The notes under the pieces are model-generated. The model was not told the DNA's origin, did no database searches, and was given only the letters and a program-made list of their open reading frames with translations. From Candidatus Saccharimonadota bacterium (GTDB lineage: Bacteria; Bacillota_I; Bacilli_A; Mycoplasmatales; Hepatoplasmataceae), in assembly GCA_027925325.1 (NCBI GenBank), contig AP027133.1, positions 30,001 to 62,000 on the forward strand: a DNA stretch of 32,000 bases. Reading direction: 5' to 3'. This document shows, in pieces, positions 11,223 through 22,124 of the stretch (position 1 is its first letter; every line of letters begins with the position of its first letter). The position numbers and the translations under genes were made by a program.

Positions 11223-11645
11223 GTGCCTACTATTAATCAATTAGTCCGTAATGGAAGAGAAAACAAAATTAAAAAAACCAAGACTCCTGCTTTACAGACA
11301 AGAAAAAATACTTTAAAAAATAAAGAAGTACAAAAATCATCACCACAGATGAGAGGAGTTGCGATTCGTGTTGCAACAATGACTCCTAAGAAACCTAATT
11401 CTGCATTAAGAAAATATGCAAGAGTTCGTCTTTCAAATGGACAAGAAGTAAATGCTTATATTCCAGGTGAAAAACATAATTTGCAAGAACACTCTGTTGT
11501 TTTAATCAAAGGGGGTAAAGTAAAAGATTTACCAGGGATTAGATATCGGGTAATCAGAGGAACTTTGGATACATCTGGTGTTGAAAGTCGTAGACAAAGT
11601 CGCTCGCTTTATGGTGCAAAAAAACCTAAAGATAAGAAAAATTAA
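11223..11645 (+). CDS. rpsL: 30S ribosomal protein S12
   Basis: GTG start; sequence [12 protein letters not shown]...[20 protein letters not shown]... Confidence 0.95.
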
Positions 11646-15197: not shown

Positions 15198-16067
15198 ATG
15201 AAACAAATTACTTTTGAAGAATTTCAAAAATTAAATAAAAAAGGATTTATTAAAATAAATCGCGAGATTAATAAATTGGGAATTAAATGATGAGCTCATT
15301 CTGGTACTTTATTAGGAGCAATTCGCGATAAAGGCTTTTTACCATGAGATGATGACATCGATATGGCGATGTCGATTGATGATTATTTAAAATATCGAAA
15401 TGATTTAATTAAGATTGCAGAGAAAAATAATTATAGATTTGCCGATCGACTAAAACATATCGGAATGAATGCAACAAGATTTATTTATAAAGAGAAATTT
15501 ATTATTTCATATGATGGAAAAAAATATGTTTCTGCTCCCTTTATCGATATAATGATTGCGATTCCAATAAAAAAAGAAAATAAATTTAAATTTAAGATTT
15601 GAGAATGACAAAATAAATTTTTCTTTTTATTCAATAGTTTGCCACCAATTCTTCCCAAAATTGATACAAGATATGGAAGAATAAAAAAAGTTCATTGATA
15701 TGAACAATTAGGAGCAGCTGTTGCGCAAATTTTTCTTTTTTGGATGATTCCGTTTTTTTATTTGCAAAATTATTGATTAAAACAAAAAGCAAAAAATAAA
15801 AATAATTATAAAAACCTTATTTTATATCATACTTACACTTCTAGAGTTTTTATATATCAAAAAGATAATTTAATTCAAAAAAAAATTTTTCAAGATAAAG
15901 AGATCATTTATATTTCAAAATTTTATAAGAAAGAATTAGAATCTGCTTTTGGTAAAAATTGAAATAAAAAACCACCAGCTGCAAAGCAAATTCCTCATCA
16001 TATTATTTATAATCAATATAATAAAAACAAAAAAGAAGCAAAAATTTATCCTTACATAATAAAATAA
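15198..16067 (+). CDS. licD: LicD-family phosphotransferase (CDP-alcohol dependent phosphocholine/phospho-alcohol transferase), copy 1
   Basis: ATG 15198; eight in-frame TGA codons are read as Trp; ends at TAA 16065-16067 (289 aa). The LicD signature [28 protein letters not shown] is present. Confidence 0.8.
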
Positions 16068-16078
16068 TTTTAATTATT

Positions 16079-16441
16079 TTATTTATATGATTCTTCTTGT
16101 TCTTTTTTAAGTTGCTTTTTAAAGATAACAGGAATTGAAATTATTGATAAAAATGATCCGGCTGAATTTCCTAAAGCTCCGATAATTACAATATAAATTG
16201 CTTTTGAAACATCTAAAGTGGTGCTATTTTCAGGAGTAGCACTATATATTGCAATTCAAGCTATCAAAGGAATTGTAATTGAAGAAATAAAAGTCGCATA
16301 TACACCATAAATCGCTGCGCTAACATATCTGTTTCGCTTTATCTTAAATATTTTAATATTAAAAGCTAGAGAAATGGTGTACTGTAAAATTAAGATAATT
16401 AAAAAAAATATAATTAAAAATCATCATTTATCTACTATCAT
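16079..16441 (-). CDS. Small integral membrane protein (about 120 aa, 3-4 TM), paralog of the upstream gene
   Basis: Minus-strand ATG at 16441, stop TAA (plus-strand tta 16079-16081). Absent from the ORF track because of in-frame TGA codons. Translation: MIVDKWWFLIIFFLIILILQYTISLAFNIKIFKIKRNRYVSAAIYGVYATFISSITIPLIAWIAIYS...AIYIVIIGALGNSAGSFLSIISIPVIFKKQLKKEQEESYK. Confidence 0.6.
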
Positions 16442-16796
16442 TTACTTCTTCCTTTTTTTGCTTCTTTTTTCTTCCTCGTTTTTCTTCATGACCTAGTTTT
16501 TTAGAAACATAGGGAACTAAAATTGCCGCAAAAAAATTACCAATTGCTGTTGCAAAAGCAGCAATTAGAATGATTCATCAAGGTGCCGTTTCTCCATCTG
16601 TTAATGCTACAACAACAATGGGCGTTGCGGCCATTGTTATTACAAATAAAAAAGAAGCAACTGCCCCCATTAAGGCAGCGACCAAAAATTGATCTTTTGA
16701 GATCATATAAATTCGATAATTAAAAAAGAATCCAACAATTAATTCTACAAAGGGATATACAAATAATATTATTAATGCTACTTCTCAATTTTCCAT
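16428..16796 (-). CDS. Small integral membrane protein (122 aa, 3-4 TM) with a basic C-terminal tail
   Basis: Minus-strand ATG at 16796, stop TAA (plus-strand tta 16428-16430). Translation: MENWEVALIILFVYPFVELIVGFFFNYRIYMISKDQFLVAALMGAVASFLFVITMAATPIVVVALTDGETAPWWIILIAAFATAIGNFFAAILVPYVSKKLGHEEKRGRKKKQKKEEVNDSR. It overlaps the start of the downstream paralog by 14 nt. Confidence 0.65.
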
Positions 16797-16901
16797 TATT
16801 TTTGTAATTATTTTAATCCATTATACTCTTATATTTAATTAAAATGCGGTTTTTAAAGTGTATAATTTTTTAGATATATTAATTTATAGAAATAAATAGT
16901 T

Positions 16902-17641: not shown

Positions 17642-18441
17642 ATGAGTAATTTTGAAAAAAAAGATCTGAAAAATGATATTAAAATAATTCATTATATCTG
17701 AATTCCTGATAAAAAAATATTCCAAAAAAACAATTGGAAATTATTAATAATACACTAAAAATTAATAATGATTTCTCAGTAAAAATATGAGATTTTAATG
17801 AAATAAAAAAATTAAATATTAAAAACAAGTATTTCAATAAATCTATTGCAAAAAAACAATGAGCTTTTGCTTCTGATTATTTGAGATTAAAAATTTTATA
17901 TGAATATGGAGGAATTTATTTAGACACTGATCTACATTCTTTAAAAAAAATAAGTAATTTTTTAGATAAACAAAATAATGTTGATCTTATTTTGGGTTTT
18001 GAATATAAATATCTTGTTTCAACTGGATTTATTTGAGCTAGAAAATCAAAAAACAAAATTATCAAAAAAATTTTAAATTATTATGATAATTTTGATAAAT
18101 ATAACGATCCAAAAAAAATTAAATTCATTGTTAATAATTATATTTGAACGTATGTTTTAGTTAAAGATCATAATTTACTTTTTAAAGATCAAAATCAAAT
18201 ATTAAAAGACAAAATTTTAATTGTTAATCATAATTATTTCTCATCTATTAATAAAGCAAAAGAAGAAAGTTTTTTTCTACACAAGCATTTATTATCTTGA
18301 AAGGAAAATCATAATATAAGAAAATTGATGATTTTTATTTTATCATATATTCAAGAACATAAAATTTTAAATCCATTTCTTAAAATTCAAATTGAACTTA
18401 AATTAAGGAAAATTAAAAAAATATATAAAAATTTGAAATAA
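17642..18441 (+). pseudogene. DXD-motif glycosyltransferase (Gly_transf_sug / GT32-like), interrupted by a 1-nt frameshift in poly(A) tracts (phase-OFF allele, pseudogene or sequencing error)
   Basis: The frame from ATG 17642 gives MSNFEKKDLKNDIKIIHYIWIPDKK, then stops at TAA 17756-17758. The remainder (KQLEIINNTLKINNDFSVKIWDF...WAFASDYLRLKILYEYGGIYLDTDL...) is open in the neighbouring frame from 17713 to TAA 18439-18441. The span is 800 nt, one short of a multiple of 3. Confidence 0.65.
17711..17730 (+). repeat. Two A7 homopolymer tracts (17711-17717 and 17724-17730) at the frameshift site
   Basis: The sequence reads gat-AAAAAAA-tattcc-AAAAAAA-caattgg. One added A in either run restores a single ORF. 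Confidence 0.8.
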
Positions 18442-19486: not shown

Positions 19487-20158
19487 ATGATTAAAAAAGA
19501 TATTAAAAAATATAATGTATGTTTAACTTATGGAACTTTTGATATGTTTCATTTTGGTCATTTATCAATTCTTTTGAGATGTAAAGAGAAATGTAATAAA
19601 TTAATTGTTGGTGTTGCAACGGATGATTATAATAAAAATAAACAAAAAGAATCTATTCAATCACAACAACAGCGTTTTAATTTTATTAAAAATTTACATT
19701 TTGTTGATAAGGTTATTTATGAACATAACTTTAATATTCAATGAGCTAATGATTATAAAAAATATAGAGCAGAAGCAATTTTTATCGGAGATGATCATAA
19801 AGGAGAATTAGATTATTTAATTGAAGATGGAATAAATCTTATTTATCTTGATCGAACTAAAGGAATATCAACAAGTGATATTAAGAAAAAAATAAAGCAA
19901 AAAAATATTTTCTTTTTAATTCAAAACAAATTAGATCAAACAGAAGAATTATTTCAAAATATTAAAAAAATTAATCTTAATAAAGATAATTTTCTAGTTT
20001 TAGCGATTAATAAAAAAATTGAAACTAGTTTTCAGTTATATCAATTTTGAAATAGTAATAAAAAAATAGATTTTATTTTTCTTTTTAATAATACGCAAGA
20101 AGTAAATCAAATGAAAAAAAGAATTAATTTATTGAAAATTAATAATTTAATCAATTAA
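19487..20158 (+). CDS. tagD: TagD-like cytidylyltransferase (HxGH family) with an extra C-terminal region of about 85 aa and unknown function
   Basis: Motifs LTYGTFDMFHFGHLSIL (HxGH) and DRTKGISTSDI (RTxGISTS). The ORF extends through TGA 19742-19744 to TAA 20156-20158 (223 aa, compared with about 130-140 aa for a core TagD). Confidence 0.7.
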
Positions 20159-21008
20159 ATTTAAAAAATATCATATATATAATTCATAATTTAATTTTTA
20201 AATTTTTTACTTTAATTTCTTTTTTTATTTTTTTATAGTAATTTTTTCTTGATGAAAAAAATCTCTTATTAAGCATATATTTAACAAAAATTGGTTTATA
20301 ACTTTTATCTAAATTTTTATAATTTTTATTATAAAAATTAATTATGATAAGCAATGAATTTCAGTATTTTTCTTTTTGCTTACTATTTAATTTTTCTTTA
20401 TTAATTTTATCTAAAATGTTATTGTAAATTAAATAAGGAATATTAATATTTTTTCAACTTGCGTCTGTTCCAAGAGCCATTCCAATATATTGGAATTCAA
20501 AATGTTTGACTCCTTTTAATAAATTTTCTTTATTTTCAATTGCTTTTTGAGTTTTAAAAATTGTATTATAAGTTAATAATCCTAGTCTTTTTTTATTATA
20601 TTTTTGTTCTCCACTCTTATATTTTTTATAAAATGAATGTTGAACTAAATCTACATTTGTATTTGTTAATTCATAAATTAAATTTTTTAATCAATTAAAA
20701 ATTATTTTATCTTTTGCTTTAATTAATTTAAAGTATTTACTATCAATTTTTTGAAGGTATCTATACAAAAATTCAGCTTTTTTTAAATTTTCTTGATCTT
20801 TTAAAATTATTATTTTTTTATCAAAAGCTTTTATTATCTTATTTTTAAAATCAATATTTTTATTGCTATTTACATATATCATAACTTGAACTAAATTATC
20901 AAGAGAATTTTCTTCTAGATATTTTTGTAAAAAATTAATTCTAGTTATTTCTTCTAGATTAATTTTTTCATCAATTGTATAGATAAAACTTAAAACTTTA
21001 TTTTTCAC
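20139..21008 (-). CDS. GT2-like protein with a degenerate catalytic motif (hypothetical)
   Basis: GTG start at 21008 (track ORF 20691..21008). With TGA = Trp the same frame is open at both ends down to the stop at plus-strand tta 20139-20141 (289 codons). The N-terminal pattern LSFIYTID...VQVMIYVNSNK...ENLKKAEFLYRYLQKIDSKYFKLIKAKDKI mimics GT2 topology but has KAKD where DxDD is expected. Caveat: my manual frame tracking through the A/T runs at about 20640-20700 was ambiguous, so an internal frameshift cannot be excluded. Confidence 0.45.
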
Positions 21009-21125: not shown

Positions 21126-22124
21126 GTGAAAGAAATGGGATTTTTATTACAAAGAGTTAAAAGTGATTTTTTAAAAAATTATTTTACTGAGGATGAATAT
21201 TGTGAATATTTAAACAATATTGAAAATAATAAGTATATTGATAGAAAAATTTATCTGAAGATAAAAGAATTAAATATTTATTTAAAAACGAAAGATTTTG
21301 AATTATTTGATTTTATCACTGAAAATATAATTTCTTTTGATCAATGTAATAATAATATTTTAAAAATTTATGATGATTTTTTTAGTTATCATCAAAAAAT
21401 TCTTACAATTTTTTTTGACAATTTTATTCTTTTTGAAAAATTAATTAAAAATAAAATAATCAATTCAATTAATTATTTTAATATAAATTCTTTATATGAA
21501 TTAATAAGAAAAATTATTGATAATTCTCAAAATAAAATTTTTGTAAAAAGATTTAAATTTATTTTTTCTATTTTTTATAGTTATAATCGAGAAAAAGCAG
21601 AGAAAATAGTAAATTCAAAAAATAAAAATAAAATTAATGAAGATGAATTATTTATTAGTTTGTACAAAAATAGTGATAAAGCTACAAAAAGGTACTTTGA
21701 TTACAAATTAATAAATGAATTTTCTTTTTCGGATATAATTGACTTTTTTACGATTTTAAAAGATAAAAATTATAAAAATTATTTAAATATAAGAATTTTT
21801 TTAATTAATTTGTTGGGTGAAAAAAAATATAATAATTTCTATCAACAAGATGATCAAAATAATATTATTAATTGATTTTTGAGCAATTATAAAGCTATAA
21901 AAATTTTACGTAATAAAGTTATGCATAATAAAGTTTTATTTACAAATATGAAGGAATTAAATAAAGGAATTGATAGTCTAATTAAATTATCTAATCAAGA
22001 AAAAAATAATATTGGTGATTTAACTTATAAAAAATTTTTAAAAGAGACTTTTACTGTTTTGAAAAAAATTAATCAAAATAAAGCTTCTAATTTTTTTAAA
22101 AATGAATTAATTAAATTTCACTAA
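21126..22124 (+). CDS. Abi_2 (AbiD/AbiF-like) abortive-infection family protein
   Basis: Track ORFs 21126..21875 and 21879..22124 are in one frame joined by TGA = Trp (332 aa; ATG 21135 is an alternative start). The C-terminal signature IINWFLSNYKAIKILRNKVMHNKVLF matches the family's conserved sWl..l..lRN..aHh..l block. Upstream, the FSFSDIIDFFTILKD segment is also family-like. Confidence 0.6.

Follow-up and report, generated by a model that had tools for sequence, protein, structure and literature searches.

Overlapping paralogous genes for small three-helix membrane proteins in Hepatoplasma, members of a lineage-restricted family probably related to DUF5698

Results

Two overlapping genes masked by in-frame TGA codons

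The window analysed here, a 32,000-nt stretch of the genome of Candidatus Hepatoplasma scabrum, a Mollicute of the isopod gut (assembly GCA_027925325.1, contig AP027133.1, positions 30,001 to 62,000), contains on its minus strand two short, overlapping genes for paralogous membrane proteins, which we call A and B. Gene A (HPPSJP_0420, 16428-16796) encodes 122 amino acids (aa) and its product is identical to the GenBank protein P0001, while gene B (HPPSJP_0410, 16079-16441) encodes a paralogous, degenerate subunit of 120 aa. A preliminary description of the locus had proposed two minus-strand genes that are masked by in-frame TGA codons and overlap by 14 nt, and independent calling of open reading frames (ORFs) with translation table 4 reproduced both genes and their overlap. 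The window has a GC content of about 23%, and TGA is read through, as in Mollicutes. In-frame TGA is found at codons 4, 73 and 74 of A and at codons 6, 7 and 62 of B; all Trp residues of the two proteins are encoded by TGA, at Trp positions conserved between H. scabrum and H. crinochetorum. Since GenBank already lists A and B as hypothetical proteins, it is only a scan with the standard code that misses them.

The overlap (16428-16441, minus strand) reads ATGATAGTAGATAA and places the ATG of B within the final codons of A; the same 14-nt overlap is present in H. crinochetorum. A candidate coupling signal, the Shine-Dalgarno-like hexamer AGGAAG (16448-16453, minus strand), lies within the 3' end of A, 6 nt upstream of the ATG of B. 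Further upstream, 23 nt before the ATG of A, the sequence reads TATAAT (16820-16825, minus strand), which could serve as the -10 box of an A-B transcript. This hexamer lies in a 105-nt divergent intergenic region common to A and a hydrolase gene. A promoter consensus scan of this AT-rich region returned 12 sites against 9.8 ± 3.4 expected, which is no excess over chance, and the TATAAT is for that reason retained as a candidate only. A terminator scan gave two overlapping GC-rich hairpins with T-runs inside the coding region of A (16653-16679, minus strand; 2 found against 0.3 ± 0.6 expected in shuffles). These coincide with the Ala/Gly-rich segment AALMGAVASF and are probably a by-product of codon content.

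A and B align from end to end with around 21-23% identity. Their Smith-Waterman score of 111 compares with 32 ± 6 for shuffled B (z = 13.5; 0/2000), and with 39 ± 8 for separate shuffling of membrane core and tail (z = 9.4; 0/2000). As the score lies beyond all 2000 shuffles in both controls, the paralogy of A and B is genuine. For the species pair H. scabrum and H. crinochetorum, the ratio of nonsynonymous to synonymous substitution (dN/dS) comes to 0.06 in A and 0.16 in B, and synonymous sites are close to saturation; the neighbouring LicD and hydrolase genes give 0.15 and 0.11, so that A and B are constrained to a like degree. These low ratios, together with the TGA codons at conserved Trp positions, indicate that A and B are real genes under purifying selection.

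A small family occurring as one, two or three tandem subunits

An exhaustive HMMER search with a joint A/B profile against 1.84 billion cluster representatives retrieved 30 proteins at E <= 1e-3, nearly all of them 100-135 aa long and matched over their full length. All of them come from contigs of a low-GC, table-4, Mollicute-like kind or from the mobile elements of such genomes. The sources that carry a name are Hepatoplasma species, 'Mycoplasma sp.' Bg1 and Bg2, and the metagenome-assembled 'Mycoplasmataceae bacterium' GLR43, all of which belong to the Hepatoplasmataceae (PMC10928387). The other assemblies and read sets that carry family genes have a GC content of 19-32%, use TGA for Trp and encode an EF-P that is 55-70% identical to that of Bg1. 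Word-indexed protein searches returned Hepatoplasma orthologues only, plus the protein P0038 when queried with the family profile. Scans of A and B against Pfam and NCBIfam gave only sub-threshold noise (Anthrone_oxy, DUF3413, VIT1), a Pfam scan of 32 members revealed no family in common, and scans of IMG/VR found no relative. This is a small, previously undescribed family without a Pfam or NCBIfam model, found only in Mollicutes of the Hepatoplasmataceae type and on their mobile elements.

Table-4 translation and the family profile were applied to 17 loci, numbered here with the prefix L. Single genes occur in L020, L025, L028, L030, L031 and L032, and also in L033-L035; pairs occur in the window, L001-L004, L022 and L029, and triples in L018, L024, L026 and L027. 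The order A then B is kept in 7/7 pair loci, with junctions of -14 to +1 nt, which supports the earlier view that the overlap of these paralogues reflects translational coupling and makes such coupling probable. Across all 11 multi-copy loci the paralogue junctions range from -32 to +1 nt, and the order of the subunit classes is fixed.

The subunit classes differ in a consistent manner. A Glu in the first transmembrane (TM) helix and a GN motif in TM3 are present throughout the singles (6/6) and the first subunits of both pairs (8/8) and triples (4/4). In the second subunits of pairs, Gln or Asn takes the place of this Glu in 7/9 cases (Q20 in B), and in the middle subunits of triples Tyr does so in all four. 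This loss of Glu from second subunits would fit a homo-oligomer that has become an obligate hetero-oligomer of one functional and one degenerate subunit, and the tight translational coupling fits equimolar production of A and B.

Single-copy members are also found in phage-like or mobile modules (L030:6001-6333, L031:249-587, L020:2085-2486 and L033:4986-5366). The singles P0017 and P0021 lie in phage-type replication and modification modules that hold a DnaG-type primase, a PIF1 helicase, three to four DNA methyltransferases, Dam, a DNA polymerase A and a phage-type exonuclease (PHROG match at 5e-64). The clade of P0013 and P0019 accompanies an SNF2 helicase element, and the SNF2-type helicases of L020 and L033 are 63% identical. 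In two cases the family gene and the start of a Dam-type methyltransferase gene overlap, and one metagenome assembly (JACSEJ...) holds three different family copies.

Topology and conserved residues

A and B each comprise three hydrophobic helices and a basic tail. An AF2 model built from 9 near-identical alignment rows had a pLDDT of 64 and was unusable. The model from a 32-sequence alignment is confident, with a pLDDT of 92.8 and a pTM of 0.76, with long helices at residues 3-33, 37-65 and 74-121. Foldseek searches against the PDB and against the viral fold library BFVD gave no significant match, the best hit in the PDB being Gdx-Clo (E = 2, TM-score 0.26), and a profile search of PDB sequences found nothing. 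In a 48-sequence alignment the charge is -0.5 at the N-terminus, +2.3 in loop 1, -1.25 in loop 2 and +2.3 in the tail, and all subunit classes are N-out/C-in. Any oligomer would therefore be parallel; an antiparallel dual-topology heterodimer was rejected, as the positive-inside pattern is identical in every subunit class.

In A, TM1 carries the membrane-embedded Glu18 and ends on the cytoplasmic side in the motif FFFN-Y-R-I, TM2 carries AA..G..AS-F, and TM3 contains WW and an A.GN motif before the Lys/Arg-rich tail. B has the same three-helix topology, but with Gln20 for the TM1 Glu, GS for the TM3 GN, and a longer external loop between TM2 and TM3. The residue pattern that the preliminary description had ascribed to both proteins is present, although B departs from its regular expression at two positions. 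Invariant residues in a 9-sequence Hepatoplasma alignment (A1) run from F25, N26, I29, I32, A40, A41 and G44 to G86 and P95, while across 48 family members only F25 and K/R28 are invariant. Family proteins terminate 20-30 residues past TM3, in the Lys/Arg-rich tail. Judged by residue counting, Glu18 (TM1), Ser/Thr48 (TM2) and Asn87 (TM3) may form a conserved polar cluster at about equal depth in the membrane.

A probable remote relationship to DUF5698

A and B had been likened to the membrane domain of UPF0316 proteins (DUF5698), lacking the soluble DUF2179 domain. To our knowledge, UPF0316/DUF5698 has no established function; across the searchable literature the terms UPF0316, DUF5698 and DUF2179 occur in just nine papers, once or twice in each, and never in a title or abstract. 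Our probe was an S. aureus UPF0316 sequence, which Pfam resolves into DUF5698 and DUF2179 and which is 100% identical to a plasmid-collection record. With 12 further genuine UPF0316 genes it made up a reference alignment of 13 proteins. As a positive control, the S. aureus protein scores 74.6 bits against PF18955 (DUF5698), for which the gathering threshold is 27.5 bits. PF18955 was not listed for the table-4 translations of A or B at E <= 10. Among 32 members at E <= 1 it was absent both from the families matched by at least two members and from the single-member matches down to E = 0.006. No member reaches the threshold, so the family is outside PF18955 by curated definition. The proposed lack of the soluble domain is borne out, as PF10035 (DUF2179) is matched in none of the members, while 13/13 reference UPF0316 proteins carry DUF2179.

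Profile comparison nevertheless returns a remote signal that is consistent, if below the level usually taken as proof of homology. An hhalign comparison of the family with the 13 UPF0316 proteins gave a probability of 59.5% (P = 8.9e-5) over 77 collinear columns that include all three TM helices, and an enriched 47-sequence profile gave 58% in the same register. This register matches E18 to a conserved Asn/Gln in TM1 of UPF0316, N-Y-K-I to T-L-R-T-I, AA to AA, and A.GN to A.G. A basic motif stands straight after TM1, the conserved pair A40/A41 follows 12-13 residues past its Arg/Lys, and the spacing is that of R29...K35...A41A42 in the S. aureus protein. The hhalign score of the membrane cores, 22.3, compares with about 9 for reversed profiles, with 10.1 ± 2.0 for global column shuffles (0/200 reach it) and with 10.4 ± 2.5 for shuffles in blocks of 10 (2/200 reach it). 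For the 47-sequence profile a score of 23.5 stands against 10.4 ± 2.0 in layout-preserving shuffles (maximum 17.4; 0/150 reach it). When an HMM of the DUF5698 core was used to rank 478 ORFs of Mollicute loci, other membrane proteins included, the family took ranks 1-11 and 31 of the top 40 places. At 8 bits or more this HMM retrieved 21/47 real sequences, against 8/940 decoys shuffled locally and 0/47 reversed ones. From these sequence comparisons we consider remote homology to the DUF5698 membrane module probable, with fairly good though by no means full confidence, as a matter of judgement.

Two further observations concern the DUF5698 and DUF2179 families themselves. In a Listeria monocytogenes record (NZ_LR134401.1) the gene immediately upstream of purE is a canonical UPF0316/DUF5698 gene (L005:304-828); in B. 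subtilis, yebE likewise adjoins the pur operon. In L025, a gene with YitT_membrane and DUF2179 domains (L025:12232-12504) lies some 6 kb away from the one family gene of this locus, and by these domain assignments this Mollicute-like genome also encodes a predicted DUF2179-bearing membrane protein of sister architecture.

Genomic context and the glycoconjugate island

The commonest site of the family is between efp and two or three tandem deoxynucleoside kinase (dNK) genes, as seen in Bg1, Bg2, L025, L028 and L032. The gene block there reads parE-parC-L33-yqeG-yqeH-nadD-pepP-efp-X-dNK, where X is the family gene or genes, and is without glycan genes nearby. In Bg1 the downstream genes, including a hydrolase homologue, are housekeeping and not glycan genes. 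In GLR43 (L022) the pair likewise comes after efp, but its next neighbour is a HIGH_NTase1 gene in the opposite orientation, and dNK is missing from this site. In L026 efp adjoins dNK directly, with the triple 5 kb upstream and next to a PnuC-like gene; L026, L027 and L029 all have PnuC-type transporter genes beside or close to the family genes. L024, L027, L029 and H. vulgare have other or unknown neighbours.

The window presents a different setting. As the preliminary description had it, the pair lies between licD and hydrolase/glycosyltransferase (GT) genes. These genes form a glycoconjugate island of about 9 kb in which the pair is embedded. The order here is a GalU-like NTP transferase, LicD-1, the pair (B then A, on the minus strand), an alpha/beta-hydrolase, a DXD-motif GT, a GT2, cytidylyltransferase-1, two proteins without an assigned family, LicD-2 and cytidylyltransferase-2. 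The pair lies on the strand opposite to its flanking genes, and thus is not in a licD operon. In H. crinochetorum the island is fully syntenic, with the pair likewise on the opposite strand, so this species provides no independent evidence for a link to licD. Independent adjacency is seen in L018, where the triple begins 8 nt after licD on the same strand, preceded by CTP_transf_like and LicD genes, and where P0020 is 28% identical to A. Counting H. scabrum and H. crinochetorum as one, licD adjacency thus occurs in about 2/11 chromosomal lineages. It is absent from Bg1, Bg2, GLR43, H. vulgare, L024-L029, L032 and all mobile-element copies. The A-then-B tandem is kept in related loci, but conserved co-location with licD, which the preliminary description would lead one to expect, is not found in the roughly nine other chromosomal lineages, where efp-X-dNK is the commonest arrangement. 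The licD adjacency is therefore suggestive and not a defining property of the family.

Within the island, the two LicD paralogues are encoded at 15198-16067 and 22143-23000, and the two cytidylyltransferase (CTP_transf_like) paralogues at 19487-20158 and 23025-23450. The window shows no choline kinase and no choline transporter that could be recognised as such, so the phospho-head group transferred may be choline, glycerol or another. The CTP_transf protein of L018 is closest to island copy 2 (54% against 41%), while its LicD barely separates the island copies (48% to LicD-2, 45% to LicD-1). The DXD-motif GT (17713-18438, plus strand; PF04488, E = 2e-13) occupies what looked like an 850-nt gap between the genes for the hydrolase and the GT2, and shares 70% identity with an H. 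crinochetorum protein of 260 aa. It has no in-frame ATG at its start and stops lie just upstream, so that either a non-ATG start or an N-terminal truncation applies. Two conserved proteins have no significant family match, one of 247 aa (20139-20882, minus strand), with a sub-threshold GT2 match at E = 0.0023, and one of 329 aa (21135-22124, plus strand); both are kept in H. crinochetorum at 72-83% identity.

Elsewhere in the window, full-length tblastn matches of PtsI (8539-10260) and RpsL (11223-11645) to H. crinochetorum reach well upstream of the first ATG. This indicates that both genes use non-ATG start codons and are under-called by an ATG-only ORF scan. A tmRNA gene lies directly after smpB (1683-2009), and tRNA genes for Ser-GCT, Gly-TCC and His-GTG are found at 6768-6858, 8424-8498 and 23496-23572, respectively.

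Discussion

A proposed coupled pair of membrane subunits

The explanation that we favour, and to which we would give an even chance, is that the paralogues A and B are co-expressed with coupled translation and assemble as subunits into a small hetero-oligomer integral to the membrane, being minimal relatives of DUF5698 with a putative housekeeping transport function. The hetero-oligomer is suggested by the genomic logic of the pair, and a small channel or transporter activity around a Glu-centred intramembrane site is our best guess at what it might do. Each subunit would be a three-helix bundle with its N-terminus outside and its basic tail in the cytoplasm, and the subunits would pack in parallel. 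The ancestral form would have been a single gene, presumably giving a homo-oligomer. Tandem duplication would then have produced the pairs and triples, with A keeping the polar cluster and its partner B losing it. A small solute might pass through the polar site of A, or transport there might be coupled to protons or cations, and the function would be of a housekeeping kind rather than specific to licD.

Several points weigh against this explanation. The likeness to DUF5698 is below the Pfam threshold, and hhalign reaches only about 60%, falling to 17-27% when the comparison is limited to the membrane cores. As DUF5698 is without a known function, the homology transfers no mechanism. Nor is there an independent sign of a transporter fold, as the two fold libraries searched (PDB and viral) and the PDB profile search were all without a significant match. 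A purely structural or regulatory role in the membrane is possible.

Alternative functions

The position of the pair had led to its proposal as a heterodimeric flippase or substrate transporter for this locus, for example for a lipid-linked glycan or choline; a phospho-glycolipid would be a further possible substrate in the service of the LicD island. The embedding of the pair in this island in H. scabrum and H. crinochetorum is consistent with such a role, as is the distant lineage L018 with its triple directly past licD. Two licD adjacencies in about 11 lineages exceed the expectation for a random gene in a genome of around 600 genes (a rough estimate, with no formal test), and the island shows no other flippase candidate. 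However, the pair lies outside the licD operon on the opposite strand, most lineages lack the licD link, with efp-X-dNK the commonest setting, and single-copy members reside in phage-like replication modules. There is also no similarity to GtrA, SMR/ArnEF, EamA/LicB or Wzx/TacF. Because the licD position is not conserved, a flippase or choline transporter function is possible but weakly grounded, and we regard it as unlikely.

A second proposal is that the family takes up nucleosides, deoxynucleosides or a related nucleotide precursor, as a channel or transporter that would feed the downstream salvage kinases and be exploited by phages to supply DNA synthesis. Family genes lie directly upstream of tandem dNK genes at the five efp sites, singles stand beside Dam, DNA polymerase A and PIF1 helicase genes in phage-type modules, and PnuC-type genes are close by at three loci. 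The Listeria UPF0316 gene upstream of purE, taken with the efp-X-dNK arrangement, gives a faint hint of a recurring link to nucleotide metabolism. Yet the efp-dNK adjacency persists in L026 with the family genes elsewhere, so that it may be inherited synteny of the co-directional gene strings of Mollicutes. The dNK arrangement is not kept in the Hepatoplasma species, the Pfam scan of 32 members shows no homology to known nucleoside transporters, and the argument is one of gene context throughout. We consider this quite unlikely.

A third proposal is that these are holin-like or viroporin-like pore formers or superinfection excluders of phage origin, of which the chromosomal copies have been domesticated. 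Three TM helices, an N-out/C-in topology, a length of about 100-130 aa and a basic C-terminal tail are together the layout of a class I holin, and some members do reside on phage-like or mobile elements. One of the 32 members matches a holin PHROG (E = 3.6e-5), and A has a sub-threshold Pfam match to Phage_holin_3_6 (E = 0.017). The remaining 31/32 members are without a holin PHROG match, and on this test holin identity was rejected at the family level. In the BFVD search, which gave no significant match, holins appear only at E > 2, and IMG/VR holds no relative. The phage-borne copies lie in replication or methylase modules and not in lysis cassettes, with no endolysin nearby, and wall-less Mollicute hosts need no holin-endolysin system. 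The chromosomal copies are under strong purifying selection and are syntenic across genera that share about 46% amino-acid identity (PMC10928387). A holin-like origin thus appears very improbable.

That A and B are chance open frames or decaying pseudogenes of an AT-rich genome is hardly credible and effectively refuted: in its favour are the small size, hydrophobicity and AT-rich composition of the ORFs and the lack of a match in curated families, but the dN/dS values at saturated synonymous sites, the confident AF2 model and the presence of orthologues in 16 related loci (reference genomes, host-associated assemblies and metagenomes) with order, junctions and motifs kept all contradict it.

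Significance

The finding is a modest one, in that it adds a small, lineage-restricted family and tempers an attractive flippase hypothesis. For the Hepatoplasmataceae, it identifies a conserved and previously unnamed membrane component of reduced isopod symbionts, relatives of which travel on mobile elements. The series from single to pair to triple, in which one subunit keeps the buried Glu and others lose it, is an evolutionary progression seen within one family. UPF0316/DUF5698 occurs widely in Bacillota, among them Staphylococcus, Listeria, Enterococcus and Bacillus, and a natural minimal version made up of the membrane module alone would lend itself to studies of structure and function that bear on the superfamily as a whole. 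A bolder conjecture, which we think distinctly doubtful, would make the three-helix module of the DUF5698 type a translocation unit in its own right, one that oligomerises and has an intramembrane Glu/Thr/Asn site at its core. The Hepatoplasmataceae would then have its barest form, with one, two or three subunit types and no regulatory DUF2179, moving a LicD-made phospho-glycolipid across the membrane or (deoxy)nucleosides inward, and phages would have captured it as an auxiliary gene. If true, this would offer the first functional handle on the UPF0316 family of Firmicutes.

Comparison with known systems

Paired SMR proteins such as EbrAB, YkkCD and ArnE/ArnF provide an analogy, as they are about 105-125 aa long and are encoded by adjacent or overlapping paralogous genes, like A and B. 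These pairs are obligate heterodimers with a functionally essential Glu in TM1 (Glu14 in EmrE). The Glu18 found in TM1 of all singles and first subunits of the A/B family resembles this residue in design only. SMR proteins have four TM helices and many of their pairs are antiparallel, whereas the A/B family has three helices and both subunits are N-out/C-in. Neither A nor B matches SMR (PF00893), EamA (PF00892) or GtrA (PF04138) in Pfam at E <= 10, and none of these is common to at least 2/32 members at E <= 1; the preliminary description had named these families for comparison, and neither the Pfam scans nor Foldseek against the PDB revealed similarity. SMR and Fluc were dropped because there is no sequence or fold match and the number of helices is wrong, GtrA for lack of sequence or fold support and again a wrong helix number, and EamA for lack of sequence or fold support.

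Class I holins have three TM helices, an N-out/C-in topology and a charged C-terminus. In size, helix number, topology and basic tail they are like A and B, but in lysis-cassette location and family match they are not. A further analogy lies in SemiSWEET and the mitochondrial pyruvate carrier (MPC1/MPC2), small three-TM protomers that are homo-oligomeric or paralogue-heteromeric depending on the lineage. SemiSWEET was dropped as a candidate relative, with no MtN3/PQ-loop match in Pfam and no appearance among the 50 best Foldseek matches in the PDB, none of which is significant.

The closest comparison is with UPF0316/DUF5698 proteins, such as those of the S. aureus SA1727 type and B. subtilis YebE, which, like the A/B family, fit three TM helices into about 95 residues and have their motifs in the same sequence. 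Both have a polar residue in TM1, which is Glu in the A/B family and Asn/Gln in UPF0316; the acidic residue lies in TM1 of the former and in TM2 of the latter. In both, a basic motif follows TM1 with identical spacing, as N-Y-[KR]-I...K...AA in the A/B family and T-[LM]-R-T-[IL]...K-G...AA in UPF0316, and a small-residue A.G motif in TM3 is common to the two. After the membrane core, UPF0316 continues with a conserved E-x-K-L-A-x-G linker and DUF2179, whereas the A/B family has a Lys-rich tail instead. The UPF0316 genes that we examined are single, while the A/B family also forms tandem pairs and triples with degenerate subunits.

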